From contig JAYQSL010000007.1 in assembly GCA_038146865.1 (NCBI GenBank), forward strand, positions 492,638 through 556,637: DNA of 64,000 bases, given 5' to 3'. This document shows positions 1,406 to 64,000 of the stretch, one piece after another. Each line of letters starts with the position of its first letter. Position 1 is the stretch's first letter. This DNA is from Rhodospirillaceae bacterium (GTDB lineage Bacteria; Pseudomonadota; Alphaproteobacteria; MPNO01; UBA2964). The position numbers and the translations under genes are program-made. The notes under the pieces were generated by a model. That model was not told the origin of the DNA. It worked only from the letters and a program-made list of their open reading frames with translations, and did no database searches.

Positions 1406-2953
1406 TCATTCCTCGAAACCGTACTCTTTCCAGCGTGCGTTGACTTTGTCCATATCGGCTTTGTGAGGTGCCACGGTTGGTGGGTAGCGTTTTCCGCCGT
1501 ATTGCTCCTCCGGTTCAAAATCAAGATTGATTGTGGCATCTATTAAAACCCGACACCATTTTCCTGTCCCAAAAAGCATTGGGTCACGATCTTTCAAACG
1601 GGTTGAGGGATCAAGAAGGGATCCAAAATTTGCAGGAAAGAAAACAATATCATCCTCAGATGCATTTACCCTGTATGCGAAGGCCCAATCGACTGCGCCA
1701 TAATCCCGAATATCTATATCGTCATCCAGCACCCAGACATTTTTGTATCTCAGATGCGCGGAGTTTGATCCCCAAAGGGCGGCGGCGGCTTGTTTGGCTT
1801 GGCCACGATAAGTTTGATTTAATTGGATAAAAACTGTTGTGCCATTATTTGCAGGTGAACAGTGAACATCTGTTACTCCTGGTACGCCTGCCCGTTCTAG
1901 AACATTCCATGCGACCCCGGCGCGCTGTATTGAACTCATGACGCTATTCTCGTTCAACATTTTAGGCAGGGTGCCTTCAAGGGTTCCTCGGAAAATAGGA
2001 TTATTGCGGTGGGTTATGCACGTAACTTTGGTTACATGTTTTGGCCCTGCGTCTCCCCCAAAATATCCAGGGTATTCACCAAAGGGTCCTTCCATTTCGA
2101 AGGTAGAGGGATCAGGATCTATGTAACCCTCGACAACTATTTCTGCGCTAGCAGGTACGAGTAAATCATTGGTTTCGCATTTTACTAATTCGACAGGCTT
2201 TCCGCGGATAGCGCCCATCACGTCGTATTCAGAGACCCCAGTTGGAACGGGGGCTGATGCGCAATAGGGAAGGGAAGGTTCCCACCCGTAAACATGCGCG
2301 ACGGGCATTTTTTGTCCTCGTTCCGCCCATTTTTGAAAATGCACACCCCAATTTTGAGCTCTCCAAAGCAGAACAGGTAGGGTGTCTCTTTGACCAATCA
2401 TTCCACGATATATACCGAGATTATGTACTCCGGTATCCGGGTCCATCGTCACGGTGGCTTGAAAAGTGTTTATGTACCTTCCGCCGTCTTCGCGGTGCCA
2501 TTGAGGGACCGGAAAATCAAATAAATTTATCGAGTCCCCGACCAAGATGTTTTCTTTGACTGGGCCCGTGGCTACCTGAGTGGGTTCAACTCTCTGAGAT
2601 AGATAATATCTGGTTGCTAAAACGAGATCTCGCGCCGGAGAGTCCTTAGGTAAGCCAAGGGTCATCGCCAGTCTCGAGTAGTTCGACATCCCACCGGTGA
2701 AAAGTTGTGAGCATCTCGCACTGTCCTCGTTGTAACCAGTTATGTTTTTGAAGAGTATTGCAGGACCTTCCCCTGTGCCAAAAGCCTTTCGGGCAATGGT
2801 TCCAAGCTCACAATTCCAATCTACTTCAACATCAATTTCTTGAAGTGTATCTTCCTCCTTGAGCGCATCAATCCAACCCCTAAGATCCTCAAACACCCTG
2901 GGTTGCAATCTGTTCGACACCCCGCCAAATGAGTCAATATCATTACTATTCAT
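1406..2953 (-). CDS. UbiD-family (prFMN-dependent) decarboxylase, paralog A
   Basis: Contains UbiD-like motifs (GIYRGM, GYIDPDP, VTDVH). It is about 55-60% identical by eye to the adjacent paralog B. The ORF track extends it to 3118, but alignment with paralog B places the start at the internal Met (MNSNDIDSF...), which removes the overlap. Confidence 0.8.
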   Translation of the reverse strand: MNSNDIDSFGGVSNRLQPRVFEDLRGWIDALKEEDTLQEIDVEVDWNCELGTIARKAFGTGEGPAILFKNITGYNEDSARCSQLFTGGMSNYSRLAMTLGLPKDSPARDLVLATRYYLSQRVEPTQVATGPVKENILVGDSINLFDFPVPQWHREDGGRYINTFQATVTMDPDTGVHNLGIYRGMIGQRDTLPVLLWRAQNWGVHFQKWAERGQKMPVAHVYGWEPSLPYCASAPVPTGVSEYDVMGAIRGKPVELVKCETNDLLVPASAEIVVEGYIDPDPSTFEMEGPFGEYPGYFGGDAGPKHVTKVTCITHRNNPIFRGTLEGTLPKMLNENSVMSSIQRAGVAWNVLERAGVPGVTDVHCSPANNGTTVFIQLNQTYRGQAKQAAAALWGSNSAHLRYKNVWVLDDDIDIRDYGAVDWAFAYRVNASEDDIVFFPANFGSLLDPSTRLKDRDPMLFGTGKWCRVLIDATINLDFEPEEQYGGKRYPPTVAPHKADMDKVNARWKEYGFEE

Positions 2954-2987
2954 TATCTTTGTCTTTCCTGAAGGGTCCAAGTGTTGC

Positions 2988-4529
2988 TTATAGTAAGCCC
3001 TTGCCCCATTTATCGAGGCCCAATTCTTCCCATCGGGCCCTTGCCTTGTCTTGATCTTCCTTAGAGGGATGAACTGTTGGCGGCCAGCGTCGTCCCTGTT
3101 CATCCGGTTCATAATCAAGATTGATTGTGCAATCTAACAAGACACGGTGCCATTTACCTGTTCCAAATAGATGCACGTTTGAGTCTCGAGCTCGAACACT
3201 TGGATCAAGTCCTGCGCCCCAAGTCGAGGGGAATACGATTAAATCGTCTTCACCCGCATTGAATCTCCAGGCTAAAGCCCAATCGATCGCTCCATAATCA
3301 TGGACATCGATATCCTGGTCCACAACGAAGACATGTTTGTACCTAACATGTGATGCGGAGTTACCCCATAGAGCTGCCGCCACTTGTTTTGCTTGTCCAC
3401 GATAAGTTTGGTTAATTTGTACTGCCACATTAATGCCCGCTTGTATTGGCATTCCAAAAACGTCGGTAACCCCTGGGACACCTGCACTTTCTAGTGCGTT
3501 CCAAGCCGTCGCTGATCTCTGAATGGAGCTCATAATATGGTTTTCGCCGTAGGATCCAGGAACTGCACCTTCGAGGGCTCCACGTAATATGGGCCTGTCG
3601 CGATGGGTTATTGCTGTCACCCGAGCAACGTGTTTCGGTGTCTGCTCAGTCGCATAATAGCCGGTGAATTCAGCATATGGGCCCTCGGGTCTGAAAGTCT
3701 GAGGATCCGTTGATATCCATCCTTCGATTACAATCTCGGCGCTGGCCGGCACCTGCAACGGCACTGTTTCACAGTCTACTAATTCGACCGGTTCTCCTCT
3801 AATCGCACCCATAACTTCGTATTCTGAGACATCTCGAGGAACAGGTGAACCTGCCGTAAATCCCATCGTTGGCTCCCAGCCAATCACGAATGCGACGGGC
3901 ATCTCGTCAGCACGGGCCATGTGCTTTGCATAGTGGTTTCCCCATCCCTGCGCCCTCCACAGGAGAACGCCAATATTGGCTTGGTCCAGCGCCATTCCGC
4001 GATAAATACCGACGTTATGAATCCCTGATTCCGGATCCTTAGTGACGCAAGCCGAATACGTATTTATGTAACGACCACCATCGCCACGATTCCATTTCGG
4101 GATCGGGAATTTAAACAAGTCTATATCTCGCCCAGTGATAATATTGTCTTTAACCGGACCTGTGCGGACTGTTTTCGGCGGTATACGTTCTTTAAAAATG
4201 TATCGACACATTTTTACCATATCACGAATGGGGGTGTCGGGTTTTAAACCGAACATCATAGCTAAACGCGAATAGCTTCCCTGACCATTCGTGAAGACCT
4301 CGCCGCACACGCTCTCAGGTGTGTTGTAGTCTTTGATATTCTTGAAAAGGAAAGCCGGGCCAGCTCCAGTGCCTTGCGCCATGCGGACGATCGTCCCGAG
4401 CTCCGTATCCCAATCTACTTCTTGATCAAACTCCGCTAGCTCCCCGGCTTCACGCAGTGCTGCAATCCAACCCCTTAAATCTCCAAAGGCGACGGGTTTT
4501 CTCTCAATTCGGTCGCTGCTTTCATCCAA
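2988..4529 (-). CDS. UbiD-family (prFMN-dependent) decarboxylase, paralog B
   Basis: 513 aa, collinear with paralog A and with canonical UbiD (GIYRGM...VTDVF). Confidence 0.8.
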   Translation of the reverse strand: MDESSDRIERKPVAFGDLRGWIAALREAGELAEFDQEVDWDTELGTIVRMAQGTGAGPAFLFKNIKDYNTPESVCGEVFTNGQGSYSRLAMMFGLKPDTPIRDMVKMCRYIFKERIPPKTVRTGPVKDNIITGRDIDLFKFPIPKWNRGDGGRYINTYSACVTKDPESGIHNVGIYRGMALDQANIGVLLWRAQGWGNHYAKHMARADEMPVAFVIGWEPTMGFTAGSPVPRDVSEYEVMGAIRGEPVELVDCETVPLQVPASAEIVIEGWISTDPQTFRPEGPYAEFTGYYATEQTPKHVARVTAITHRDRPILRGALEGAVPGSYGENHIMSSIQRSATAWNALESAGVPGVTDVFGMPIQAGINVAVQINQTYRGQAKQVAAALWGNSASHVRYKHVFVVDQDIDVHDYGAIDWALAWRFNAGEDDLIVFPSTWGAGLDPSVRARDSNVHLFGTGKWHRVLLDCTINLDYEPDEQGRRWPPTVHPSKEDQDKARARWEELGLDKWGKGLL

Positions 4530-7511: not shown

Positions 7512-9491
7512 GTGATGGCTGGCGATGTGATGAGTGAGGGAACACCTGAAAATAAAAAAGGTGCAGCTCTGATTGCTGAGTGGGATGAGTCTCCGTTCGT
7601 TAAGTCTTCCGCATTGATCCTCGGTGCATTTATTACCCTTATTGCCCTGGCTTGGGCGATAGAACTGCCACTTAAACTCGGACTTGAGTGGCTGGACGAA
7701 CAGGCGATGGTTGCTTGTCTTGGGTTGGTGATAGGCGTGGTCTTTATTCGATATCCCGCGAGTGGCGGGAGAAAAAGGCATTCTATTCCCTGGTATGATG
7801 CGATTTGCGCGGTGTCTGGTCTCGGGATCTCGGCTTGGCTTATATCTATCTATGGAGACATCGAACTAAATCCATTTGCCATGCGCGATCAGATGTTTTG
7901 GATCAGTATGATTTTACTGCCTTTAGTTTGGGAGTCGCTGAGACGAACTGCAGGGCTTAGCCTCACCATTATCTTTTCCGCTTTTGTTCTGTACGCTTTT
8001 ATCGGTCACTGGGTCCCAGGAGAGATGTTCAAGGGGGTTGAACAGGATCCCTATCGTCTTATAGCCGAGTTGGGCACCAACAATGCTTCCATTCTTGGTC
8101 TACCTCTCAAGATTATTGTTTTAACAGTTGTTCTCTTCATTTGGATGGGGCAATTACTCCTGCATACGGGCGCATCAGAGTGGTTTACCGATGTAGCTGC
8201 AGCTATGATGGGCCGATCCCGCGGTGGTTCTGCCAAAATAGCGGTTGTGGCCTCTGGCTTCTTCGGCTCTATTTCCGGATCGGCTGTTGCCAATGTCGCT
8301 TCGACTGGCGTCATAACAATCCCCTTAATGAAACAGGCCGGATATGACTCTAAGAGTGCCGGTGCTATCGAAGCGGTTGCTTCTACGGGTGGTCAGATAA
8401 TGCCTCCGATAATGGGTGCTGCCGCTTTTTTGATGGCAGAGATTTTGGAGCTAGAATATACAGAGATTATATTGGCAGCGTTGGTACCGGCAGCGCTTTA
8501 CTACCTTGCTGTATTTGTTCAGGTTGATCTGGAAGCTGCCAAAAATAAGATTGCTCCTCTGCCCAAAGACCGAATACCTAGAATGGCCAAAGTAATGGGT
8601 GAGGGTTGGTTCTTTATTCTTCCATACGTAATTCTTGTTTGGACATTATTTTCACTCAATATGCCCCCTCAAGAAGCGGCCTTCTGGGCGGCGATCTCTG
8701 TGGCTGTGGTAAGTATTATTTTCGGTTACAAGGGCCATCGAATTACCCCGGCCCAATTGTGGGATTCTATTGCTGGATGTGGTCGTGCATCTGCAGATAT
8801 CGTAGCGATTGGTGCAATGGCAGGAATTATAATTGCTATTCTGGATCGGACAGGGCTTGGTCAGGCACTTACATTGTTGCTGGCATCCGTTGGTGAAGAT
8901 AGCGTCTTCTTACTTTTAGTCTTGACCGCGATCGTTTCAATTTTGCTTGGCATGGGGATGCCAACATCTGCAATCTATCTGCTGTTGGCTACCATGATTG
9001 CGCCATCGCTAGTGAAGTTGGGTATCAATCCGATCGCGGCGCATATGTTCGTTCTTTATTTTGGTTTGATGTCTATGATTACGCCGCCAGTGGCGATAGC
9101 AGCTTTTGCGGCGGCCTCGCTCTCGGGGGCCAGGCCGATGGAGACAGGTGTGACCGCGGTTAGGCTCGGTTGGATCGCTTATATTATCCCATTTGTCTTT
9201 GTCCTATCTCCAGCCCTATTGGGTCAGGGATCTGCGTTTGAAATAATAGAGGCCTCAGTTACCGCTTTGGTAGGTGTTTGGGTCGGATCCTGTGGGTTAA
9301 TAGGTTTTGTCTTTGGACCGCAAAATAATTTCAACCGTCTACTGCTGTTTGCAGCAGGTGTTCTCTTGTTACTGCCGGCTTCAGCAATAGATTACGGTTT
9401 TGCGATTAATGGAATTGGATTCGTTATTGGTGCGGTTGTAGTAATTAAAGACTGGCTGAGAAATCGAGACACTGGTTCCGCTGAGGCTTAG
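7512..9491 (+). CDS. TRAP transporter fused permease (TAXI-associated DctQ/DctM fusion)
   Basis: 659-aa polytopic membrane protein with DctM-like repeats, directly downstream of the TAXI receptor. Confidence 0.75.
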   Translation: MMAGDVMSEGTPENKKGAALIAEWDESPFVKSSALILGAFITLIALAWAIELPLKLGLEWLDEQAMVACLGLVIGVVFIRYPASGGRKRHSIPWYDAICAVSGLGISAWLISIYGDIELNPFAMRDQMFWISMILLPLVWESLRRTAGLSLTIIFSAFVLYAFIGHWVPGEMFKGVEQDPYRLIAELGTNNASILGLPLKIIVLTVVLFIWMGQLLLHTGASEWFTDVAAAMMGRSRGGSAKIAVVASGFFGSISGSAVANVASTGVITIPLMKQAGYDSKSAGAIEAVASTGGQIMPPIMGAAAFLMAEILELEYTEIILAALVPAALYYLAVFVQVDLEAAKNKIAPLPKDRIPRMAKVMGEGWFFILPYVILVWTLFSLNMPPQEAAFWAAISVAVVSIIFGYKGHRITPAQLWDSIAGCGRASADIVAIGAMAGIIIAILDRTGLGQALTLLLASVGEDSVFLLLVLTAIVSILLGMGMPTSAIYLLLATMIAPSLVKLGINPIAAHMFVLYFGLMSMITPPVAIAAFAAASLSGARPMETGVTAVRLGWIAYIIPFVFVLSPALLGQGSAFEIIEASVTALVGVWVGSCGLIGFVFGPQNNFNRLLLFAAGVLLLLPASAIDYGFAINGIGFVIGAVVVIKDWLRNRDTGSAEA

Positions 9492-20368: not shown

Positions 20369-21781
20369 TTATTCCGCGGCTATGGAAGAGGGTTTTGTGA
20401 GCCGGTTACGGGACCTGTGTTTAATTCGTGGTCGAACATTCTTCTCGATAAATTCTACTATGAGATGTGCCACATCCACACCTGACGCCCTTTCAATACC
20501 TTGTAACCCTGGTGATGAATTAATTTCCAAAACTTTAGGTCCAGTTTTGGAACGTAAAAAATCAACGCCAGCAACATTTAGGCCTAGAATTTTTGCTGCC
20601 TTTGTCGCTACTGAACGCTCGACCCGGCTTAATTTAGTCGCGGTAACGGCCCCCCCTTGATGAACATTGGCCCGGAAGTCTCCGTCTGTTGCCTTCCTCT
20701 TCATCGCTCCAACAACTTTACCACCAACTACCAGACAGCGCACATCTTCTCCTGCCGCCTCACTTATAAACTCTTGAACTAGAAAATTTGCTTTGATTCC
20801 CCTGAACGCACCGATTACAGACTCCGCGGCCTTTTTTGTTTCCGTTAGGACTACCCCCTTACCTTGAGCTGACTCCACTAATTTTACAATCAATGGGCCC
20901 CCTCCCACTATATCAATCAACTTTTTTGTATCTCGCGGAGAGTGAGCGAAGGCTGTGACTGGCATATCTACTCGATGCTGCGACAAAATTTGATGCGCCA
21001 ATAATTTGTCCCGCGAAGCACCAATTGCCGAAGCCGTATTTAGACAGAACGAACCCATTAACTCAAACTGACGGACTACCGCCATGCCATATGAGGTGAC
21101 GGAGGGGCCTATTCGTGGGATTACGGCATCAAAACGAGGTAAGGCGCCGCCGTCGATGTGGACCTCCGGGGAGCTCGCATTTATGTTCATGTAACAACGA
21201 GTGGTATTTATAATTTCGCAGACGTGACCGTGCTCCTCAATCACGTTAGCAAGACGGCGGCATGTGTAGTTGGTTGGCTCACGGGTCAGCAAACCAATCC
21301 TCAGAGGTCTACGAACCGGCCGGCTTTTTTTGAGGTTGTCGTAAAGATTGTATGACAATTCATTTTGTAGAAAAGTCCGATTTGGATCTACAATCATGTC
21401 CTTGGAGATAGCCTGGCGCCCCAGCAACATGCGACGCTGCATTGTGTCCCTATTTGTTAAAGTTACTTCGATAGGCCATTCCACCGAACCGATTTTGACA
21501 CTAGTTCGGATTACGTAGCGCAACTCAGCTTCACCATTTGAACTCGTCACTTCCCGACGACCAATCAATGGTGCAGAGCAGAAAATTTCTATGTCGGGCC
21601 TTTCGGGTATCGGATGAATTCCAAAGCGGACATTAGGCTTTTGGGCGTCACCGAATGGTTCTATGGCGAAAGCATGTAATGCTGAGGTTCGTGCTCCAGT
21701 ATCAACTTTGGCTGTCAATGCCGGTAGCCCAAGTTCTGGGAGGCTTACCCATTCCTCCCAACCCAAAATAATTTTGTCCAT
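20369..21781 (-). CDS. rimK: Fusion protein: N-terminal retropepsin-like (RimK-associated aspartic protease domain) plus C-terminal RimK-type ATP-grasp glutamate ligase
   Basis: The N-terminus (GLPALTAKVDTGARTSALHA) looks like a retropepsin. The C-terminal approximately 300 aa is an ATP-grasp RimK/LysX-like domain. Confidence 0.75.
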   Translation of the reverse strand: MDKIILGWEEWVSLPELGLPALTAKVDTGARTSALHAFAIEPFGDAQKPNVRFGIHPIPERPDIEIFCSAPLIGRREVTSSNGEAELRYVIRTSVKIGSVEWPIEVTLTNRDTMQRRMLLGRQAISKDMIVDPNRTFLQNELSYNLYDNLKKSRPVRRPLRIGLLTREPTNYTCRRLANVIEEHGHVCEIINTTRCYMNINASSPEVHIDGGALPRFDAVIPRIGPSVTSYGMAVVRQFELMGSFCLNTASAIGASRDKLLAHQILSQHRVDMPVTAFAHSPRDTKKLIDIVGGGPLIVKLVESAQGKGVVLTETKKAAESVIGAFRGIKANFLVQEFISEAAGEDVRCLVVGGKVVGAMKRKATDGDFRANVHQGGAVTATKLSRVERSVATKAAKILGLNVAGVDFLRSKTGPKVLEINSSPGLQGIERASGVDVAHLIVEFIEKNVRPRIKHRSRNRLTKPSSIAAE

Positions 21782-23319: not shown

Positions 23320-24828
23320 TTACCAAATCGACTTGCCCGAACCAGGCAAGCCTAAATCGGACCAAATAGAGTCTATTTTGCTAATGGTAGCATTATCCAT
23401 GCGAATTTTTTTACCCCACTCGCGTTGCGTTTCTGGAGGTATCTTGGTCGTCGCATCGATCCCCATTTTGGATCCAAGGCCGGAGTAGGGGGAGGCAAAA
23501 TCCAAATAATCTATAGGCGTATTTTCTAACATTACGGTGTCTCTCGATGGATCAGTATGAGTTGCAACTGCCCACACCACATCCTGCCAATTTCGCGCAT
23601 CAATGTCGTCATCTACAACAATTACAAATTTAGTATAGGTAAATTGCTTAAGGTAAGACCATACGGCCATCATGATCCGTCTCGCATGCCCCGGATACGA
23701 TTTTTTAATGGAGACTACCGCTATGCGATAAGAGCATGCCTCAGGCGGTAGCCAAAAATCGACAACTTCAGGGAATTGTTTTGTAAATAATGGAACAAAA
23801 ACATCATTGAGTGCCTCGCCCAAAGTGGATGGTTCATCCGGAGGACGACCGGTGAAGGTTGAGAGATAGATGGGGTTTTGCCGCATTGTAACAGCGCTGA
23901 CCGTAAACACTGGGAATTTTTCAATTGAATTATAAAAGCCGGTGTGGTCACCGTAGGGACCTTCTGATCGATAATCTGTCACGCTTACGTGCCCTTCAAG
24001 AACAATTTCAGCTTCTGCGGGGACAGATAAGGGGACTGTTTTGCACTTTACGAGAGATAACTTCTTCCGCCGCAAAAGGCCTGAAAATTCGTACTCTGAG
24101 AGTTTTTCGGGAACAGGTGCCACTGCAGCGATGGTTGTCCCAGGATCTGCACCTAAAACTACTGCCGCGGGAAGATCAGTTCCTCGTTGAGACGCACTTT
24201 TCAGAGCCTCTGCACCGCCTCGGTGTTCGAGCCACCGCATCAGAGTTTTATTTTTAGACAACAGTTGCATACGGTAAATACCAAGGTTCGTGCGGCCATT
24301 GTCTTCGGTTACTACGATAGGCCAAGTAATTAGCGGCGCTGGTTCTCCAGGCCAACACGTTTGGATAGGAAGGCTATTTAAATTTATTTCGTCACCCTCT
24401 ATGACGATCTCTTGGCAAGGTGCACGCCTAACAGTCTTTGGTTTCATCGCTAAAACAGGTTTGACGAGTGGAACCATTGATTTAGCTTCACGGAGGTTAG
24501 AGGGGGGGTCTGGCTGTTGCAAAAATGCGAGCTGTTCCCCGAATGAACGGAGCTCCTCGCGAGAGCGGCCCATTCCAAGGGCCACGCGTTCCACCGTTCC
24601 GAAAAGATTTGCAAGAACTGGGATTTCTGATTTCGTTCCATCAGCCCTAATTGAGTTCTCAAAAATTACAGCGGGTCCCCGATCTGACAGCAGCCTCGTT
24701 TGAATCTCTGTCATTTCATGGACGGTGGAAACTGGCTCAGAAACTCGAATGAGCTCATTCCGACGTTCCAGATCAAGAATAAAATCTCTTAGACTGTCAA
24801 AAGTCATTTGCCCAAGTGTTCTAATCAA
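23320..24828 (-). CDS. ubiD: 4-hydroxy-3-polyprenylbenzoate decarboxylase (canonical UbiD)
   Basis: Full-length 502-aa UbiD, divergent from ubiA. Confidence 0.85.
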
Positions 24829-25710: not shown

Positions 25711-26637
25711 TCAAAAAATTCTGCTTGCAAAAATACCTGCGAGGAAAAGCCAGCCGAAAATTTTATTTGATTGAAATTTTCTTAAGCAGTCACTGGGGCT
25801 ATTTATGTCCACGCTCCAAATTTGCCAAAATAATTGGATTGAAGCGATCCACAAACCTAGGTAGAAAGGCCAGCTCAAAGTCAATGAAAAGCCTGCCTGA
25901 AAAAACATTATTAAGGCCAGTGAATAAAAACTAAATAACCAGGGCTTGCTGCCGAGGCCAAATTTTCTTGCGGTCGACTTTACGCCCGCTTTTGGATCGT
26001 ACGCTCGATCTTGGTGTGCGTAAATTGTATCGTATCCTAGGGTCCAAAAGACTCCTCCAGCGTAAAGCCATAAAGCTTGCTCGTTGATTTCTCCTCTTAC
26101 GGCTGCCCATCCAAGCAGTGCTCCCCAATTGAATGTGAACCCCAGAAAAAGCTGCGGCCAGAATGTAATCCTTTTCATCAAGGGATAGGTGAATACGAGC
26201 AAGAGAGCAGTAGCGCCAATTATCCAAGAGAACATATTGAGGGAGAGCAGCACAACAAGTCCTACAGTTAATTGAACAAGCAAAAACAATGTTGCCCGTG
26301 TAACTGTGATCTCACCGCTAGGAAGTGGACGATTTTTAGTGCGTGCTACCTGAGCGTCAATGTTTCTATCTATTATATCGTTGAGAGTGCAGCCTGCTCC
26401 TCGCATCACAATTGCACCAAATCCAAACGTGATAAATAGCCAAAGGTCGTCATAACTCTCATAGCAAAGAGCTATGCTCCACCAGCATGGAAAAAGCAGC
26501 AGCCAAGTGCCTATAGGTCTGTCATAACGGGCTAATCGAATGTAAGGATGCAATGATGAAGGAGTGTACCTCTCAACCCAGTTATCCACTGGAATATCAC
26601 TTGCAGTCTCAATCGACGTTTTAGGTGATCGTTCCAT
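25711..26637 (-). CDS. ubiA: 4-hydroxybenzoate polyprenyltransferase
   Basis: UbiA prenyltransferase with NDxxDRxxD motifs (LNDIIDRNIDAQ) and about 8 transmembrane helices. Confidence 0.9.
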   Translation of the reverse strand: MERSPKTSIETASDIPVDNWVERYTPSSLHPYIRLARYDRPIGTWLLLFPCWWSIALCYESYDDLWLFITFGFGAIVMRGAGCTLNDIIDRNIDAQVARTKNRPLPSGEITVTRATLFLLVQLTVGLVVLLSLNMFSWIIGATALLLVFTYPLMKRITFWPQLFLGFTFNWGALLGWAAVRGEINEQALWLYAGGVFWTLGYDTIYAHQDRAYDPKAGVKSTARKFGLGSKPWLFSFYSLALIMFFQAGFSLTLSWPFYLGLWIASIQLFWQIWSVDINSPSDCLRKFQSNKIFGWLFLAGIFASRIF

Positions 26638-35886: not shown

Positions 35887-36548
35887 ATGAGAGTAAGCAA
35901 ACGTTCTAGCTTTGCAATTGGGACTGCGATCGCTGTTTTAGCATGTGTTGCGTTGGGGAACTGGCAATTAGAACGCCTTAAATGGAAAAAAGATCTTATT
36001 GCTGGGATTGTTGCGGGGTTTAGCGCAATCCCGGTTGAACCTAATGCGTCACTTCCAGAATGGCGTCGCGTCAGTATATCCGGAGTATGGCTAAATAAGG
36101 CCCCTTTTTTTGTTGGACCAGTTTCCAAGAGGGGCCGTGCTGGTTGGTATGTGGTTTCACCCCTCCGTTCTAGTGACGGCAGTATTTTATTTGTTAATCG
36201 GGGTTTTCCGAGAAAAAAGCCCGGGATTTAAAGTCAGCGGGGAGAGTTAGCAACATTTTGGGTATTATAAGAAAACCAAAGCGAGCAGGCGTTTTTGCTC
36301 CCGATAATAATCCGATCTCGGGAAATTGGTTTCGAGTTGCTCCTCTGGAATTTGCCCGAGCCCGGGACTTGAAGGGGGTTTTGCCTTTTTGGGTGGATGC
36401 GCTTGAGGTTCCAGCGGGTTCACCCTTGATCGCGAACGTCACGCCCCAATTACCGCCAAACAATCATCTTGAATATGCGGTTACTTGGTATGCGTTCGCA
36501 TTTACCGCAGCACTGATTGCTTTATTATTTTGGATAAAAAATAAGTGA
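35887..36548 (+). pseudogene. surf1: SURF1 cytochrome oxidase assembly factor, split by a frameshift at an A6 run (36213-36218)
   Basis: Two adjacent ORFs in different frames (35887-36231 and 36258-36548) together reconstitute a SURF1-length protein. The C-terminus has NHLEYAVTWYAFA. Adding one A at the run fuses the two frames. Confidence 0.7.
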
Positions 36549-37734: not shown

Positions 37735-37838
37735 AGTCCAGGCTCGATTATTAATCTCATTTACTACAGCTCATTGAAACATAAAGTTGTGTTCCTAGGA
37801 TAGTGTGGTTACAAGCATTTTCCAGAAGAGGGACAATA

Positions 37839-45353: not shown

Positions 45354-46318
45354 GTTATGCTCTGCAAGTATTCTTTTGCCGTGGAGATTCGTTGGTGGAA
45401 CGATAGACGGTGCATGTAGTCTAGAGGATTCTTGGGATTAACGAGTGCGCCCGGCATCGGGTGGAGAAGATCATGAAGCCTCGTCAATAAAAATCTCAAG
45501 GATGCGCCTCGGCAAAGAATTGGTAGTGAAATTTCTTCTTTATCTTCCAATTTTCTAACCGAATTATAACCAACAAGTAGGGCTTCACCGCAATCTTTGC
45601 GATACTGGGATTTATCGTCGAAACACCAGGCATTCAAACAAATCGCAATATCATAAGCTAGAAAATCATTGCATGAGAAATAGAAGTCTATCACTCCAGT
45701 GATTTGATTTTCTTTGAAAAAGACATTGTCTGGGAATAAATCGGCATGGATGATACCTCGGGGAAGATCTCTGGGCCATGATTGTTTGAGAAAATCCAAC
45801 TCTTGAGTGATCGTTTTTATTATGTCTTCGTCTACTACTTTCGTTCCATTAACAATTGTGGAGTACAATTGCTGCCAACCAGCTAATCCCAGGGCGTTGG
45901 GTCGAGAAATATTATATCCATCACTTGCAAGGTGAAGGCGAGCCGCTGCTTCTCCGACTTTTTCACAATGTCTAGGTGTAATTTTCTTAGGCCACATTCC
46001 CTCCAGGAAAGTGCAAATCGCTGCCGGTTTACCACACAGTTCCCTAAGTGTGGTTCCATCTTTGGCGCGCACAGGAACAGGCGCCGGGAAGGACCTCTCA
46101 GAGAGGTACTCCATTAAGCCCAAAAAAAACGGAAGGTCTTTTTTCTCCACGCGCTTCTCATAAAGGGTGAGGATAAAGTCCCCTTTGGTTGTTTTTAAGA
46201 GATAATTTGAATTTTCCACACCTTCGGCTATTCCTTTGAAAGAGGTAATTTCCCCAATTTCGTATTGTTGAACGAACTCTTTCAATGTTTGGTCAGTGAC
46301 TTCTGTATAAACAGCCAT
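45350..46318 (-). CDS. thrB: Homoserine kinase, type II (APH-like)
   Basis: Aminoglycoside-phosphotransferase-fold ThrB, in conserved synteny with ispH and rnhA. Confidence 0.8.
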
Positions 46319-47965: not shown

Positions 47966-48445
47966 CTATTGAAGGTTTCTGGGAAGTTCTTTAATTGCAG
48001 TGTCTATGAGTTTTTGGGATTCCTTCTGTCCCAGTCTTCGTTCCAGAAGTTCTGATGAAGCTTTGATTGCCATATCAACTGCGAGATTACGAACTTCTGC
48101 GATCGCATCAGCTTCTGCCTGAGAAATCTTTTCATGAGCTAGTTGCTCTCTGCGGGCTAACGTGTTTTTGAGAGAATATTCTGCTTCAGATCGCATGCTC
48201 TCAGTTTGAGAACGAGCATTCGCAACTAAGGCCTCGATTTCTTTCGCTGCTTCTCTTTGCTTGCGTTGATAGTCGGCTAAAAGGTGCTGCGCCTCTTCTC
48301 TCAGTTTCTCTGCTTCATCAAGGCTGGAGCGAATCTTATCTGCCCGAGAGTCCAGAGATGTTATTATCATTTTTTTTGCGGGCTTGACTAGAACTGCCAA
48401 TAGAATGAGGAACCCGACTGCTACCCAGAACTCAGGAGTATTCAT
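47966..48445 (-). CDS. atpF: ATP synthase F0 subunit b
   Basis: Single transmembrane helix plus a long charged helix, in the alphaproteobacterial atpIBEF'F operon order. Confidence 0.8.
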   Translation of the reverse strand: MNTPEFWVAVGFLILLAVLVKPAKKMIITSLDSRADKIRSSLDEAEKLREEAQHLLADYQRKQREAAKEIEALVANARSQTESMRSEAEYSLKNTLARREQLAHEKISQAEADAIAEVRNLAVDMAIKASSELLERRLGQKESQKLIDTAIKELPRNLQ

Positions 48446-48936
48446 GGTGCAGACTCCTGATTGATTGTTTCAACTGTGCTAAGAGCCTCTGCTTTCGAGA
48501 CCTCAGACCCCGAGAGCTTTAGGACTGTTATTTGAACAAGCTCTGCCGCAACTGATTTAATATCGGCAATTGCATCATGACGTGCTGCGTTAATTTTAGC
48601 CTCCGCCTCCGCGGTCATCGCAGAAATGCTTTTCAGAGCTTCAGCTTCACGATGGGCTTGACTTTCAGCTATTTGTAATACGGCTTCCTGGATAATTTTT
48701 TGAGCTTCCAACTTACCGCTAGAAATAGACTCTTCGTATGCAGCCAGGACAGACGTTGCCTCAAGCTGCAGTTGTTCAGCACGCTCCAAGTCATTTTCGA
48801 CACGAGATTGCCGTTCTTCTAAAACTCCGGAAATCCGCGGAATTACGACCTTCCACATAACTAAGTATAGCAGCAAGAACGTTATACAAAGCCAAAGAAT
48901 TTGTGTTGGGAAGGTCGCAAAATCTAATTGGGGCAT
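48442..48936 (-). CDS. atpG: ATP synthase F0 subunit b'
   Basis: Second b-type subunit, overlapping atpF by 4 nt. Confidence 0.75.
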   Translation of the reverse strand: MPQLDFATFPTQILWLCITFLLLYLVMWKVVIPRISGVLEERQSRVENDLERAEQLQLEATSVLAAYEESISSGKLEAQKIIQEAVLQIAESQAHREAEALKSISAMTAEAEAKINAARHDAIADIKSVAAELVQITVLKLSGSEVSKAEALSTVETINQESAP

Positions 48937-48982: not shown

Positions 48983-49210
48983 TCAGAATACGAACAGCAG
49001 CAAGAGGGCTACTACTAATGCATAAAGTGCGATTGCTTCAACGAGGGCGAAACCAATCCAGGTCATCGCAGTCACATGAGGCGCAGCGGCGGGGTTGCGG
49101 GCAACAGAGGAGATGAATGCGGCGAAAATATTTCCTATGCCGACCCCTGCGCCAATAACTCCAATAGCGGCTAAACCGGCTCCAATAAGTTTTGCTGCAG
49201 CAGCTTCCAT
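48983..49210 (-). CDS. atpE: ATP synthase F0 subunit c
   Basis: 75-aa proteolipid with the conserved carboxylate helix. Confidence 0.9.
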
Positions 49211-49262: not shown

Positions 49263-50001
49263 TTAATGAAGATGAATCGCGTCGTTTATATAAAAACAGG
49301 TCAAGATCGTGAAAACGTAAGCCTGTAAGAATGCAATTAGAAGCTCCAAACCAGTAAGGGCTACTACAAATGCCAATGGAAGAATTCCTCCAATAACCCC
49401 CATGCTCACGACAAAGCCAGCAAAAACCTTTAACATAGTATGACCAGCAGTCAGGTTAGCAAATAGACGAACTCCCTAGACTAACGGGGCGGGATAAATA
49501 TGAAATAATCTCGATAGGGATCATTAATGGCCACAAAACTACAGATACGCCTGGTGGGACGAAAAAACTAAAAAAGTGCCATCCATGTCGTACAAAACCT
49601 AAGATTGTAACACCTACGAAAACAACAATAGCCATCGTAAACGTCACAATTATGTGGCTTGTGAAAGTAAAGCTGTATGGGATCATTCCTAACATGTTGC
49701 CGAATAGAATGAACATGAACAGAGAAAACACAAAGGGAAAATATTTCCTGCCCTCATTGCCAACCGTTTCGACTAGCAGATTTGCAACAAACTCGTATGA
49801 AATCTCCGCCATGGATTGCCATCGGCCCGGTACAAGTGAGCTTTTCCGCATCCCCAAAACGAGAAACAGTGTAATCAGAAGGACAGAAAGGGCCATAAAT
49901 GCGGCCGAATTGGTAAAGGCTATACTGGTTTCACCGACGCTTATTGGCATTAATTCCTTAATTTCAAATTGTGCCAGCGGGCTCTGCGCACTCTCAGCCA
50001 C
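49263..50001 (-). pseudogene. atpB: ATP synthase F0 subunit a, interrupted by a 1-nt insertion in a G run
   Basis: The 49456-50001 ORF ends ...[16 protein letters not shown]. The next frame continues [12 protein letters not shown]...NDAIHLH* (49263-49473), which carries the essential Arg of subunit a. Removing one G at minus-strand GGG (plus-strand ccc, 49474-49476) restores a 246-aa protein. Confidence 0.8.
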
Positions 50002-50404
50002 TATCTTTGTTCCCTTCAGTCTCTTCTCTGCTAACGCTGCGATTAGAATAATTTTTTAAGTTAGCTCTGTAACCAACCGTTTGGCTTAAACCGGCGGCTG
50101 TTCTGTACACATTAAAAATACCAGCAATAGATCCCAAAACAAAAAACACCAACAAACACCAAGGATTTGTTCCTAACCAATAATCTAAAGCAAGTCCAAT
50201 TAGCACTCCAACTATTAGAGCGGAAACCAGTTCAACACCGATCCGCATCGCGAAACCTAGGCCTTGACGCACACCGCTACCAACAGTTGCACCAGGTGCC
50301 TCCGATCCAGACGATTCCCTAGCATGACTCAACCGAGTGGCCAAGGAGTTTAAGGGATCGATCTCGTTATCATTCGTCATATGATCGCTATAATAGGATC
50401 GCAC
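49994..50404 (-). CDS. atpI: ATP synthase protein I (AtpI-like)
   Basis: Small hydrophobic protein at the head of the F0 operon. Confidence 0.6.
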   Translation of the reverse strand: MRSYYSDHMTNDNEIDPLNSLATRLSHARESSGSEAPGATVGSGVRQGLGFAMRIGVELVSALIVGVLIGLALDYWLGTNPWCLLVFFVLGSIAGIFNVYRTAAGLSQTVGYRANLKNYSNRSVSREETEGNKDSG

Positions 50405-58362: not shown

Positions 58363-59686
58363 TATTATCTGGCTTATCGAGGAAAGTTTTATGGCAGGTT
58401 TTTCGAATTTCGTTCAGGCGGTAAAAAATAAATCTTTTGAGTTTAGCTATTCGGCGCAATGTCCAACGGAGTAGTGCTCTCTCTCTAACAAACGTTGAGA
58501 GTAGAATATCCCTCCAGCCATCAATTCCTCTGGTTGCGATTAATTGAAGCCTTCTTGTGGTGCTGAGCCAAAATGGGCTCAATCCGAGGCTTAAAGCAGT
58601 TACGGCTATTATGAGGCGAGATTCGTCGGAGGAAATAGCCCCCACCGTTAGGCCTGTGGCGGCTAAAAGGAAAGAGAACTCTCCCATTTGAGACATTAAC
58701 ACACCAGCCAAGAACGCTTTCTGCCAGGTCTCACCCAGTAATCTTAATATTGCCACATTAAGACCGGTCTTAAAGACCATAACAATAAGAAAAAGAGAGA
58801 ATACGACGCCGATATTCCGCCAAATGAAACCAAGGTCAATTAAAAGCCCGATTGAAAGAAAAAATACCATAAGTAGGACTGTCTGAATGGGTCTTACAAC
58901 TAATAACATGGGCCTCCGTTCAGCGCTGTTGCCAACAAGGAGGCCTGCCAAGAATGCTCCGTAAGCCGGAGACAGACCCATAAGACCCAGCATAGCACCG
59001 CCTCCAAAGCAGTAGACCAACCCAGCCAGGGGCGACAAGTCCGGGTATTTGGAAAACAGGCGGTAAAAGGGTAAATGAGCTCTTCCTTGTTGCAGTAAAA
59101 ATCTAATTAGGAGGGCGAGGAGAACAACTGCACCAACAAACTTTAGGGCGCCACCAAAACCCAATCCCTCACCGCCCATATTCTCCACGATCAGCATCAT
59201 GGGGAGAAAGGCGAGGTCTTGGGCGATAAGAACAGCGATGGTGATCCTTCCTATCCTGTTTCTGGAGGCTTTAACCTCATCAAGCATTTTTACCGCAACT
59301 GCCGTGCTGGATAGCGCGACCACAAAACCTAAAAGCACGGCCGTCCTTAGAGGTAGGTCGATTATCCATGCCAATAAAAAAACAACTAGGAGACTACCAG
59401 CGCTTTGCAGTAAAACTGCGGGAAGTGCGATCCGCCAGGTAAACTTGAGTGTTCTTACACTCAACTCCATACCCACTATGAATAGTAAGAGGAGAATACC
59501 TAGCTCAGCAAAGTAAGCTACTATTCCCTCGTTTTTTATTAGCCCAAATCCGGTCGGACCTAGTATGACCCCCGACAACAAATAGCCAACCAGTGGAGGT
59601 TGACCTAAACGCGCCATAAACATACCACAGATCAATGCGGTGATTATGACGAAAGCTATTCCTGATAAATCCGCTGCATGTTCCAT
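58355..59686 (-). CDS. Cation:proton antiporter (CPA family, Kef/NhaP-like membrane domain)
   Basis: 443-aa protein with about 12 transmembrane helices in a Na_H_Exchanger-like pattern, and no KTN domain. Confidence 0.7.
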   Translation of the reverse strand: MEHAADLSGIAFVIITALICGMFMARLGQPPLVGYLLSGVILGPTGFGLIKNEGIVAYFAELGILLLLFIVGMELSVRTLKFTWRIALPAVLLQSAGSLLVVFLLAWIIDLPLRTAVLLGFVVALSSTAVAVKMLDEVKASRNRIGRITIAVLIAQDLAFLPMMLIVENMGGEGLGFGGALKFVGAVVLLALLIRFLLQQGRAHLPFYRLFSKYPDLSPLAGLVYCFGGGAMLGLMGLSPAYGAFLAGLLVGNSAERRPMLLVVRPIQTVLLMVFFLSIGLLIDLGFIWRNIGVVFSLFLIVMVFKTGLNVAILRLLGETWQKAFLAGVLMSQMGEFSFLLAATGLTVGAISSDESRLIIAVTALSLGLSPFWLSTTRRLQLIATRGIDGWRDILLSTFVRERALLRWTLRRIAKLKRFIFYRLNEIRKTCHKTFLDKPDNNA

Positions 59687-60089
59687 CGCTTAAATCGACT
59701 ATAGCAGGATCAAGCTTGTTATGAAGAGTTACAAATTGTGAGTTTCAAAATTTTAAATGGGTTTTCAAAGGGACTGAGATTCTAATTAAAGATTAGCACG
59801 CTCTTTCTTATTCGGGGTAATTCGTGCAAAGACTTGCTAGTCAACAGATGTCGCAAAACAAGTGCGACGATCAGTGGATTGTTTTATAATTCTTTTCGGC
59901 AAGACCGAATTCCGCAAATCTGAATGTTAGATGTCGCAATGCACGATTAACCAATGTCTTTTTATTGATGTTGGTGTCTAAACTTTGTTCGGATCTTTCC
60001 TTGCTGTATTAAATTTTTCCAGGAGCCTGAGCTCAAAAGTAAAAACTTATGTGATCCCTATTTGGGCTTTACCATGTTAAATTAGTCAG

Positions 60090-60764
60090 GTGAAAAATGT
60101 GATCAAAATAAGTGTAATTATTCCTACTCTAAATGCCTCTGAGAGTCTTCTTAGAACCATAAATTCGGTCAAATTGGCAGCGGATGAGGTAATCGTAGTT
60201 GATGGGGGCTCAACCGACGGATCTGTTCAAATTGCTAAGGAGGCTGGAGCTAGGGTAATTAAGACCGGAAGTGGGCGAGGGCTGCAACTTTCAGTTGGCG
60301 CCAGTGGAGCCCGAAATGACCAGTTACTTTTCCTGCATGCGGACACCCACCTTGGGCCGAATTGGCCGGAGATGGCTAAAAATTTATTTTTAAAAGGCCA
60401 AAAAGCAGGCGTTTTTAAGTTTGTACTGGAAGATCAGAGTTTTTTTGCGAGATTGGTTGAGGTGTTTGTCAGCTTCCGTTGCAGATCATTAGGTTGGGCT
60501 TGGGGAGATCAAGGGTTATTGATTAATCGGAATCTCTACCTGGCTGTAGGTGGGTTCAATCCTAATATGCCCTTATTTGAAGATGTCGATATAATTCGGA
60601 GGATCGGCAAACCACGCCTAGAAATTCTAAATGAGAACGCAATTACATCTGCCACTCGGTACTTGAGAGGTGGTTACCTCTGGAGATCACTAAAAAATCT
60701 TTGCTGTTTAATTAGCTATTTCTTAGGTGTGTCGCCAGCGAAAATCCTGAGGTTTTACAATTGA
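60090..60764 (+). CDS. Family 2 glycosyltransferase
   Basis: VIIPTLNA ... VVDGGSTDGS GT-A fold motifs. Confidence 0.75.
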   Translation: MKNVIKISVIIPTLNASESLLRTINSVKLAADEVIVVDGGSTDGSVQIAKEAGARVIKTGSGRGLQLSVGASGARNDQLLFLHADTHLGPNWPEMAKNLFLKGQKAGVFKFVLEDQSFFARLVEVFVSFRCRSLGWAWGDQGLLINRNLYLAVGGFNPNMPLFEDVDIIRRIGKPRLEILNENAITSATRYLRGGYLWRSLKNLCCLISYFLGVSPAKILRFYN

Positions 60765-61366
60765 AATTTTTAAGAAGACGGCCTGTTGTAATTATTTTCG
60801 CTCGGGTCCCTCGCCTGGGCGCGGTTAAAAGGCGATTGGCTGCTGGCGTGGGAATGCATGAAGCTTTTGAATTTTATGCCCGGTCTTTTTCAAACTTGGT
60901 TAGATCACTTTCGTCAAACCCTCATTGGGATTTAGAGCTCTGTGTGACCCCAAAAAATGTTAGGGGGATCAACAGAATTTTGTGTCACTCAGAGACAATA
61001 ACATTTCAATCTTTCGGGGATTTAGGGTTAAGAATGGAGCGTGCCATCGTCAAACATAATTACAGTCCGGTTCTCCTTGTGGGTAGTGATATCCCAGGAA
61101 TACTTCCCTCTGATATCGAGAATGGAATTAGGGCACTCGGAAGAAATGATTTCGTTTTTGGCCCAACACTAGATGGAGGTTACTGGCTTACCGGGGCACG
61201 ACGAGGTAACTTAGTAAGGGGGATATACAAGCATGTTCGATGGTCAAGCCCCTATGCTTTGACCGACACTATGCGGAATACTCAAGGGAAGAAAGTAAGC
61301 ACACTCAGGCATCTGAGAGACATTGATGATGAGGAGGATTATTACGAATACATGAAGTCTGGATAA
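60761..61366 (+). CDS. DUF2064 family protein (partner of the GT2 gene)
   Basis: Translationally coupled to the GT2 gene by a 4-nt overlap. Rossmann-like IIFARVPRLG N-terminus. Confidence 0.6.
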   Translation: MKFLRRRPVVIIFARVPRLGAVKRRLAAGVGMHEAFEFYARSFSNLVRSLSSNPHWDLELCVTPKNVRGINRILCHSETITFQSFGDLGLRMERAIVKHNYSPVLLVGSDIPGILPSDIENGIRALGRNDFVFGPTLDGGYWLTGARRGNLVRGIYKHVRWSSPYALTDTMRNTQGKKVSTLRHLRDIDDEEDYYEYMKSG

Positions 61367-61404
61367 CGGGTCCTAATCTTTTGGTCCCGGGAATGCCAGA
61401 AAGG

Positions 61405-61572
61405 CTATTTTATTTTTGCTTCTTTGAATACAACGTGTTTTCGGGCAACTGGATCGTATTTCCGTTTTTCCATTTTCTCTGTGAGAGTACGAGGGTTTTT
61501 TCGGGTAATATAGTAAAAGCCAGTATCGGCCGTGCTGACCAATTTAATCTGTATCGAGTTAGCCTTCGCCAT
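61405..61572 (-). CDS. rpmG: 50S ribosomal protein L33 (bL33)
   Basis: Hand-translated 55 aa: [55 protein letters not shown], a classic bL33. It is missing from the ORF track because it is under 60 aa. Confidence 0.8.
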
Positions 61573-61745
61573 TACTTTTATTCCTTCGAAAGAATGATGG
61601 ATGCTGGAAAATACAAGCGACGTTCATTCTGTCAAGGAGTAATCATATTTGTGCCAATCTTTTACTGGACCAGGGTGCCTGCTCTTTGGGCTAGTGAGAT
61701 GCCTGACGATAGTCCCAAAATCATTCGTATTTAGAACGAAAAAAT

Positions 61746-63956
61746 TTAGCGTCTCGGTTTTTGTTTTTTATACCTTGCATTTCTTAGGGAAGAGTTCCGG
61801 AATGAAGAAAAGAGCGACACACTAATGCTCCCAGTTTGTTTATCTGCGGATTTTATGAAGACTGATAATTGGTCCCCTAATGAATATTTTACCTTTTGTT
61901 TTGGCCCGATAAGAGCTCGCGATTTTTCGTCGAATCGAAAGCGTCCCCGGCCTAGTTCAGAAATCGGTAATAAGGCATCTGATCCAAATTCGTCTAGCTC
62001 TACGAAAAGGCCAAAGCGTTCTACCCCCGTGATTCTGGCCCCGGTTTTTTTTCCAAGCTGTCCAGAGAGTAGTGCTGCGGAGTAACGATCAAAGGCATCT
62101 CTCTCAGCCAAAGCCGCGCGTCTTTCTGTCATTGAGATATGTTTGCCTATAGTCTCAAGGCTCTCTGTTGAGCCTTTTTCGATCTTATCTGGTCCCAAGC
62201 TATGGGCGCCAATAAGTGCTCTGTGCACCAAAAGATCAGAATATCTTCTTATTGGAGATGTGAAATGGGCGTAATTGTTCAGGGCTAAACCAAAATGACC
62301 TATGTTTTCTGGACTATAAATTGCCTGTGCCTGTGTCCTAAGAATCGCATCTTGGATCCCTCTCGCATCCTTTCTGGCCATGACTGTTGTCAATAAGTTT
62401 GCAAAGTGTTTCGGTCTTACAGATTGACCTCCTTTTAAGGATAAACCCAAAGTCTTAAGAAAATCCCTAAGTGACTCGATGCGATCTAGGGCAGGGTTTT
62501 CATGAACGCGAAACATACAAGGCCATCCATGTTTAATAAGTGACTCTGCGGCACAGATGTTGGCCAAGATCATGAATTCCTCAATAAGTCGATGGCTATC
62601 CAGTCGATTTTTGGAACGAATGCTGGAACAGGAGCCTTTTTCATCTAAAATAATTCTGCGCTCAGGTATCTCGAGGTCTATTGCCCCCCGTTCTTTTCTC
62701 GCAACATGAAGAGCCTGATAAGCGCCGTATAGGGCGTCCACACGTTCGTCCCCAATTGGAAAACTTTTTTCATGCCCGTTGTCTTTTGCCTCTTGGAGCT
62801 GCTCGTAAGTCAACCTTGCAGCTGAACGCATCAGCCCCCTATGAAAACTGTGACTAAGCTTTTCGCCATCTTCGGAAATATCAATCTCCACCGCGATGCA
62901 GTATCTTTCTGCTCCTGGTACCAAAGAACATACTCCATTAGAGAGCTCCTCAGGTAGCATGGGAACCACGCGATCAGGTAGATAGACTGAATTTCCCCGG
63001 TCCTGTGCAGCATGATCGAGGGCGCTATCCATGGGGACATAATGAGAGACATCAGCAATTGCAACGAGAATTCGCCAGCCTTTTGTGCCGCCTTGCAGTG
63101 GGGTCGCATAAACAGCGTCATCGAAATCTCTAGCATCTTCTCCATCAATGGTAACTAGTTCAGTTTCACGAAAATCTTTTCGGCCATCGAGTGAGAATTT
63201 TGAGGTAATTTTTATCGATTCGAGGACCTCTTTTGAGAACGCGATCGGGATCTCATTTAACGCTAATACAAGGTCGCCGATTGCCCTGGGGTCGTCCTGA
63301 TGAGCAATAATTTCGGTAACTTTTGCTAAGGGAAGCCCATATACCCTTCCTTCCAAAACCTCACAGGATACAAGATCTCCCTCTTTAGCACCGCCCAAAT
63401 TTTCTTGGGCGACCAAGAACTCTCCTTTGCGTTTCCTTGAAACAGGCTCAATTCGCCCGCCCCCTGTATGCTCTCGAACCAACCCGAAAATCTTTCCCTG
63501 ATTGCGCTCTAGTCGTCGGATGGTTCGGCCCCAAAACTGGTCTTTTTTCTTAAATAATTTTACAAGGAGCCTGTCACCGACCCCTGGTGCGGAACCATGT
63601 CTTTTATCATTAGTTAATCGTATAAAGTGGTTTAGCGCCGCGAAGTCAGGCCTAGTGGGTACTAGAACGGGATTGCCTTCTTCATCAATGGCAGTGATAT
63701 CGACAACAATAATTGAAGGAAGATGGTCCGATAAAATATAACGTCTGCTTCCCTCTCGTTTGAGCAAACCATCTTTTTCGAGGTCTCTCAATAGCCTGGT
63801 AATGTATGACCCATCCGCGCTATCCAATTGGAAGTAGCGTTTAATTTCTCTTTTCCCGCAGGGGCCTATCTGTTTGGAGAAGAACTCGAGTAATTTCTCT
63901 CGGTCAAGCGGTTTTTCTGTGATCTCAGAAGAGCTCACGGGAGCCCAAGCCATCAT
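61746..63956 (-). CDS. rnr: Ribonuclease R
   Basis: 736 aa with an RNB catalytic domain, an S1 domain, and a basic C-terminal tail. Confidence 0.9.
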   Translation of the reverse strand: MMAWAPVSSSEITEKPLDREKLLEFFSKQIGPCGKREIKRYFQLDSADGSYITRLLRDLEKDGLLKREGSRRYILSDHLPSIIVVDITAIDEEGNPVLVPTRPDFAALNHFIRLTNDKRHGSAPGVGDRLLVKLFKKKDQFWGRTIRRLERNQGKIFGLVREHTGGGRIEPVSRKRKGEFLVAQENLGGAKEGDLVSCEVLEGRVYGLPLAKVTEIIAHQDDPRAIGDLVLALNEIPIAFSKEVLESIKITSKFSLDGRKDFRETELVTIDGEDARDFDDAVYATPLQGGTKGWRILVAIADVSHYVPMDSALDHAAQDRGNSVYLPDRVVPMLPEELSNGVCSLVPGAERYCIAVEIDISEDGEKLSHSFHRGLMRSAARLTYEQLQEAKDNGHEKSFPIGDERVDALYGAYQALHVARKERGAIDLEIPERRIILDEKGSCSSIRSKNRLDSHRLIEEFMILANICAAESLIKHGWPCMFRVHENPALDRIESLRDFLKTLGLSLKGGQSVRPKHFANLLTTVMARKDARGIQDAILRTQAQAIYSPENIGHFGLALNNYAHFTSPIRRYSDLLVHRALIGAHSLGPDKIEKGSTESLETIGKHISMTERRAALAERDAFDRYSAALLSGQLGKKTGARITGVERFGLFVELDEFGSDALLPISELGRGRFRFDEKSRALIGPKQKVKYSLGDQLSVFIKSADKQTGSISVSLFSSFRNSSLRNARYKKQKPRR

Positions 63957-64000
63957 TCTAATGAACTGTCAGTAGATTTTGAAGTAGTTTGCCGTTTCAC

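Follow-up and report, generated by a model that had tools for sequence, protein, structure and literature searches.

Mitochondrial +1 frameshift sites are found in nad3 of birds and turtles and in cox1 of Perkinsus, and frameshifting of the prfB/RF2 type combines a P-site codon able to re-pair with conservation of the site, a slow or stop codon in the A site, and an upstream Shine-Dalgarno (SD) stimulator. Reading frames are also broken by technical means: for long-read genome and MAG assemblies it is documented that consensus indels in homopolymers split gene calls (PMC9262707). Here we report that atpB, the gene for subunit a of the F-type ATP synthase, is interrupted by one extra base in a 64,000-nt stretch of contig (hereafter the window; GC 45.8%) from an uncultured marine Rhodospirillaceae-like alphaproteobacterium. 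The break is defined by homology and is not a chance pattern, and its most likely cause, as we infer from comparison with relatives, is an indel error of consensus building, sequencing or assembly within a short G/C run.

The atpB gene lies on the minus strand (50001..49263) and is 739 nt long, or 3n+1, its open reading frame being interrupted at 49474-49477, two codons ahead of the codon for the essential arginine (Table 1). Frame 0 closes as ...SLGSSSIC at a TAA stop (49458-49456), while the arginine, which belongs to the penultimate TM helix, and the last two TM helices of the product fall within the +1-frame part. This arrangement bears out the first-pass annotation, which had placed a frameshift upstream of the arginine and had assigned the conserved Arg segment and the C-terminus to the next frame; the frame table, the PF00119 match and the alignment with 5dn6_X and 6b2z_a all agree with it. 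The CGT codon at 49469-49467 encodes the counterpart of E. coli aR210. A mechanical list of open reading frames shows, of the C-terminal part, only a Met-initiated tail of 57 aa (49263..49436). The +1 frame is itself closed by a TAG at 49478-49476, immediately before GGA, so a change of frame that keeps the arginine is confined to GGG (49476-49474)/AGT (49473-49471).

Table 1. Features of the atp operon and of the SURF1 locus, in window coordinates
Feature	Coordinates	Strand	Remarks
atpI	49994..50404	-	PF09527; upstream of atpB; intact; syntenic in relatives
atpB N-terminal part, frame 0	49456..50001	-	GTG start; 181 aa; out-of-frame tail SSSIC, then stop
atpB C-terminal part, +1 frame	49263..49475	-	from GGA 49475-49473 to ...INDAIHLH, then stop; PF00119 and structure alignment
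Single extra base in atpB	49474..49477	-	CT-A-GGG-A; relatives one base shorter: CTGGGA, CTAGGA or CTAGGG
Essential Arg codon CGT	49467..49469	-	readable in the +1 frame only
atpE (c subunit)	48983..49210	-	downstream of atpB; intact; identical to the PF00137-labelled gene of relatives
atpF'	48442..48936	-	downstream; intact; b-type; syntenic with the PF00430-labelled gene of relatives
atpF	47966..48445	-	downstream; intact; b-type; syntenic with the PF00430-labelled gene of relatives
SURF1 (cytochrome oxidase assembly factor)	35887..36548	+	two ORFs through a one-base deletion; PF02104
SURF1 G4 run	36200..36203	+	relatives have five bases: GGGGG in four, GAGGG in three

The two parts of the gene add up to a single subunit a. 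The ATP synthase A chain profile (PF00119; gathering cut-off 33.9 bits) matches the first ORF over positions 3-148 of 217 (E=6e-44) and the 57-aa second ORF over positions 161-217 of 217, and after a one-base repair the product matches over positions 3-217 of 217 (E=8.7e-68, 228.9 bits). The first-pass annotation had located the break at a G homopolymer, the CCC that the plus strand indeed carries at 49474-49476, and had predicted that deletion of one G would restore an intact protein of 246 aa. The repair does give a full-length PF00119 protein, but its length is 245 aa; an extra G is possible, but the run holds only three G, and an inserted A is equally a single event. Over its length the repaired protein aligns with the structurally solved subunits a (AtpB/Atp6, PF00119) of Paracoccus denitrificans (5dn6_X, E=1e-58) and of yeast mitochondria (6b2z_a), its Arg segment being aligned with SHSIRLAGNIMAGH in Paracoccus and with SLGLRLGSNILAGH in yeast, and it shares R-L-x-x-N-x-x-A-G-H with them. 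What sets the window gene apart from its intact orthologs is the frame, broken by one extra base.

The surroundings of atpB are those of an ordinary alphaproteobacterial atpI-B-E-F'-F operon, in which the order of genes matches that of relatives. The c subunit is 100% identical to copies on many public contigs, and the operon is bordered by SMC on one side and by ispH, thrB and rnhA on the other. No ATP synthase genes beyond this operon were found within the 64-kb window.

A comparison with orthologous atpB sequences, which the first-pass annotation had called for, finds the gene intact and one base shorter in same-species and distant relatives alike. The best homologs of the repaired protein belong to uncultured marine "Rhodospirillaceae/Alphaproteobacteria bacterium" MAGs and to TARA/JGI marine metagenome contigs; the best 120 database homologs are uninterrupted without exception (120/120) and nearly all 245 aa long, and the closest among them (P0002, from a TARA marine metagenome) is intact at 98% protein identity. 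Same-species contigs, gathered through an exact look-up of the identical c subunit and a junction-pattern scan of metagenomes, comprise L083 and L084=L092 (two JGI metagenomes) together with L089 and L090 (NCBI MAGs GCA_038111995.1 and GCA_038112735.1). Over 5-12 kb their identity to the window is 97.9-98.8%, and within atpB it is 98.8-99.1% at the nucleotide level; all five, from four independent assemblies, have an intact atpB of 245 aa with one base fewer at the site. The same holds for relatives at 90-95% identity (L081, L085-L087 and L093). Of the 13 loci whose junction was aligned, not one has the extra base.

The junction varies within this population, reading CTG GGA in L083/L084 and L081, CTA GGA in L090 and CTA GGG in L089, and the CTAGGGA of the window is a single event from either direction: an extra G relative to the CTA GGA of L090, or an inserted A relative to the CTG GGA of L083/L084/L081. 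A pattern scan of metagenomes that accepted all variants of the junction returned 32-nt unshifted matches only, and exact look-ups of the truncated products, the 181-aa one among them, found no database record. Downstream of the shift, the repaired frame differs from those of eight relatives by 4-12 synonymous and no nonsynonymous codons, so atpB has not decayed, and no further stops or indels beyond the first lesion appear in the alignments with relatives. The lesion, if real, is by this comparison extremely recent.

Several shorter subunit a sequences in public data have other origins. In the 64-member protein cluster, the short sequences are either cut off at a contig edge or the result of gene-caller choices on intact DNA. 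A 57-aa member (P0123) was considered as an independent case of frameshifting and rejected as a contig-edge partial, and a 123-aa atpB call in L092 was likewise rejected as a second frameshift, the underlying DNA being intact (245 aa) and the call a gene-caller choice. An antisense ORF of 135 aa (window 49652-50059, plus strand) overlaps the 5' half of atpB, and on JGI contig Ga0255757_10005983 (L092 2142-2549) the gene caller reports the antisense ORF together with no more than a 123-aa piece of atpB, a gene-calling artefact. In one further subunit a homolog (P0001, an ENA contig, 358 aa) about 113 residues are duplicated in tandem within the protein (SHIIVTF...LIAFLQA repeated), which probably stems either from faulty assembly or from a genuine duplication on the contig.

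A second break of similar character is present 13 kb from atpB, in SURF1, which ends an otherwise intact cox operon (COX2, COX1, CtaB, CtaG, COX3). Its halves match PF02104 over profile positions 2-105 (35887..36231) and 124-205 (36258..36548). Same-species SURF1 contigs, retrieved through their identical COX3 protein, all differ from the window at the missing base (7/7) and all encode an intact SURF1 of 220 aa; against one of them (L095, 99.5% identity over 12.1 kb) the deletion in the G run is the only indel of the window.

Coverage by same-species contigs extends over 34.35 kb of the window (24860-59213), and in this region the indels in atpB and SURF1 are the only ones within coding sequences that set the window apart from all relatives. 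Long A/T runs of up to 9 nt in the covered region are mostly the same as in relatives, which indicates an assembly without a general homopolymer problem. In a greedy gene map, long ORFs tile the window densely, and Pfam scans of all neighbouring ORF pairs on the same strand, and of the large ORFs left over, gave full-length matches with SURF1 as the one exception. About 55 other genes look intact, intactness at 1-24859 and 59214-64000 being judged from ORF tiling and full-length Pfam matches only.

Relative to all covering same-species contigs the window has two private intergenic indels, one of 1 nt at 37827, upstream of the start of an M32 carboxypeptidase, and one of 2 nt at 46317, immediately ahead of the thrB ATG; these may represent true variation or additional consensus errors. 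In L099 (GCA_038109435.1, 4636-6058, corresponding to about window position 39835), threonine synthase is called as two genes because a 10-N scaffold gap lies inside it; this is another technical gene fragmentation in the public assemblies of this population. L088 (ENA ERZ28548090, a "myrmidon" contig with coverage 0.6) has 87.6% identity to the window with 152 gap openings over 7.4 kb and nearly every gene fragmented; this contig, from a related organism, is of low coverage and rich in errors, and illustrates by contrast with the window how a heavily error-laden assembly appears.

Elsewhere in the window are three full-length UbiD-family (prenylated-FMN decarboxylase) paralogs, all on the minus strand (1406-3118, 2988-4529 and 23320-24828), two of them adjacent, near a UbiA prenyltransferase (25711-26637) and two PmbA/TldD genes. 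A RimK ATP-grasp ligase is fused to an N-terminal Zn_protease domain (20369-21781, minus strand; PF05618 + PF18030 + PF08443), and a TRAP transporter of fused architecture (7512-9491, plus strand; 659 aa) is covered by PF06808 (DctM) at residues 138-576 only, with extra sequence at both ends. The largest stretch of the window without an ORF of at least 60 codons (59690-60080, 391 nt) contains no tRNA and no Rfam family at the gathering threshold, and scans of the whole window for tRNAs and Rfam families gave no hits.

Our observations are consistent with reports of consensus indel errors in long-read and MAG assemblies (PMC9262707; PMC12007338), with which the window shares a single-base change in a mononucleotide run that is private to one assembly, the fragmentation of an essential, perfectly conserved gene, and a second case nearby; it differs in that the run in atpB is short (2 to 3 nt) and long A/T runs look correct, so that the assignment to this class is one we infer. 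The technical reading is favoured because the atpB indel is private relative to all five same-species contigs, because the gene is undecayed and because a second private indel occurs in a G run. That a sequencing error is a simpler explanation than a real frameshift, as the first-pass annotation had argued, is thus supported though not proven, by the private shift, the lack of decay, the SURF1 indel and the lack of recoding signals. Both indels are private (5/5 at atpB and 7/7 at SURF1), both are one-base changes in mononucleotide runs of otherwise perfectly conserved genes, and both occur in the same assembly.

On the technical reading, the organism would carry a normal, intact subunit a of 245 aa, the extra base at 49474-49477 (CTAGGGA for CTAGGA or CTGGGA) would be a consensus, sequencing or assembly indel, and the single base missing from the G5 run of SURF1 at 36200 would be an error of the same kind. 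Aligners can render SNPs on either side of a G run as offsetting indels, and the atpB site has population SNPs on both sides of its G run, so a consensus or polishing step applied to mixed strains might have miscalled an SNP-flanked run of this sort. Only 11.5% of atpB positions have a SNP within 2 nt, while at the SURF1 site the expectation of SNP overlap is 51%, which is uninformative, and the joint expectation with atpB is 0.06; the flanking SNPs at the atpB site weakly suggest that the indel may be a mixed-strain consensus artefact.

The principal alternative is a real and very recent null allele, carried by the cell or strain that was sequenced and captured, say, in a single-cell genome or from a minor lineage. 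Such an allele would leave an F1Fo unable to translocate protons and might make SURF1 a second real lesion of the same lineage. We consider this alternative unlikely, although several observations speak for it. The extra base stands in the sequence, the G run is only 3 nt long and such short runs are not classic sites of homopolymer error, whereas short G runs are natural hot spots of replication slippage in vivo; the assembly agrees with its relatives at long homopolymers and hence is not generally error-prone. The two lesions, moreover, both strike respiratory-chain functions, which could hint at biology, but about a quarter of the covered region consists of oxidative phosphorylation genes, so two hits among them are a mild coincidence. 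Against a null allele, the shift is missing from every same-species contig, and neither the metagenome scan nor the look-up of the truncated product yielded an independent contig that carries it. The codons downstream of the shift have acquired no nonsynonymous change, and no sign of a true pseudogene, such as relaxed selection or additional downstream lesions, was seen against the eight relatives. The remaining atp and cox operon genes and about 55 others are intact. Two frameshifts per approximately 34 kb of core genes would, extrapolated genome-wide, amount to roughly a hundred or more pseudogenes, a load out of keeping with a lineage whose free-living relatives, at 98-99.5% identity, have intact genes. 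Selection should also act strongly against an aerobic marine heterotroph that loses subunit a.

The extra base may instead be real and yet harmless, if a strain-private, newly arisen +1 slippage at CUA_GGG_A yielded a functional protein: tRNA-Gly on GGG (49476-49474) would re-pair on GGA (49475-49473), and programmed or tolerated frameshifting would then produce a full-length subunit a. Like prfB/RF2-type frameshifting, such an event needs a +1 shift and a P-site codon able to re-pair, and the move from GGG to GGA is compatible with pairing (two Watson-Crick pairs and a wobble), the resulting protein (..SLGVRLFAN..) would equal that of the orthologs, and the frame-0 stop is only 6 codons downstream. 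We nevertheless regard this as very improbable. The shift is conserved in no relative, even at 99% identity; the A-site codon in frame 0, AGU, is neither a stop nor rare (8.9 per 1000; 14% of Ser codons); and 55 intact genes of the window contain 83 in-frame copies of GGG_A, which implies that the site cannot be efficiently shifty. The upstream sequence CCC GUU AGU CUA is without an SD-like stimulator, and the downstream RNA folds with z=+0.60, 147 of 200 shuffles folding at least as well. Unlike the prfB/RF2 case, the site thus lacks conservation, a slow or stop codon in the A site and an upstream stimulator; its tetranucleotide is common in frame, and on these grounds, together with the absence of structure, a programmed +1 frameshift was rejected. 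Transcriptional slippage would need a run much longer than G3, and a literature search for programmed frameshifting in bacterial ATP synthase subunit a returned, within the library searched, no paper combining these terms. The likeness to the mitochondrial +1 frameshifts is that atpB is the bacterial homolog of mitochondrial atp6. Least credible of all, to the point of being negligible, is a subunit a working as two polypeptides, the 181-aa N-terminal part and a 57-aa part from the Met at 49436: both ORFs exist and the second starts with ATG, but the essential-Arg segment is encoded in neither, no Shine-Dalgarno sequence is evident before the internal ATG, and no relative is split this way. 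This candidate was rejected because the Arg helix lies outside both ORFs.

If the frameshift were real, it would point to a free-living marine aerobe whose F1Fo has no working proton channel, or else to a new recoding of atpB, and either would be remarkable; true +1 slippage in particular would be a new recoding in an essential bioenergetic gene and would echo the mitochondrial +1 frameshifts. The evidence points instead to an ordinary consensus error. The assembly appears to hold sporadic one-base indels in short G/C runs, at least in atpB and SURF1 here, and apparent pseudogenes in it should not be taken as gene loss without read-level checks. Annotation pipelines would mis-flag atpB and SURF1 as pseudogenes, and would thereby understate the respiratory capacity of this organism.
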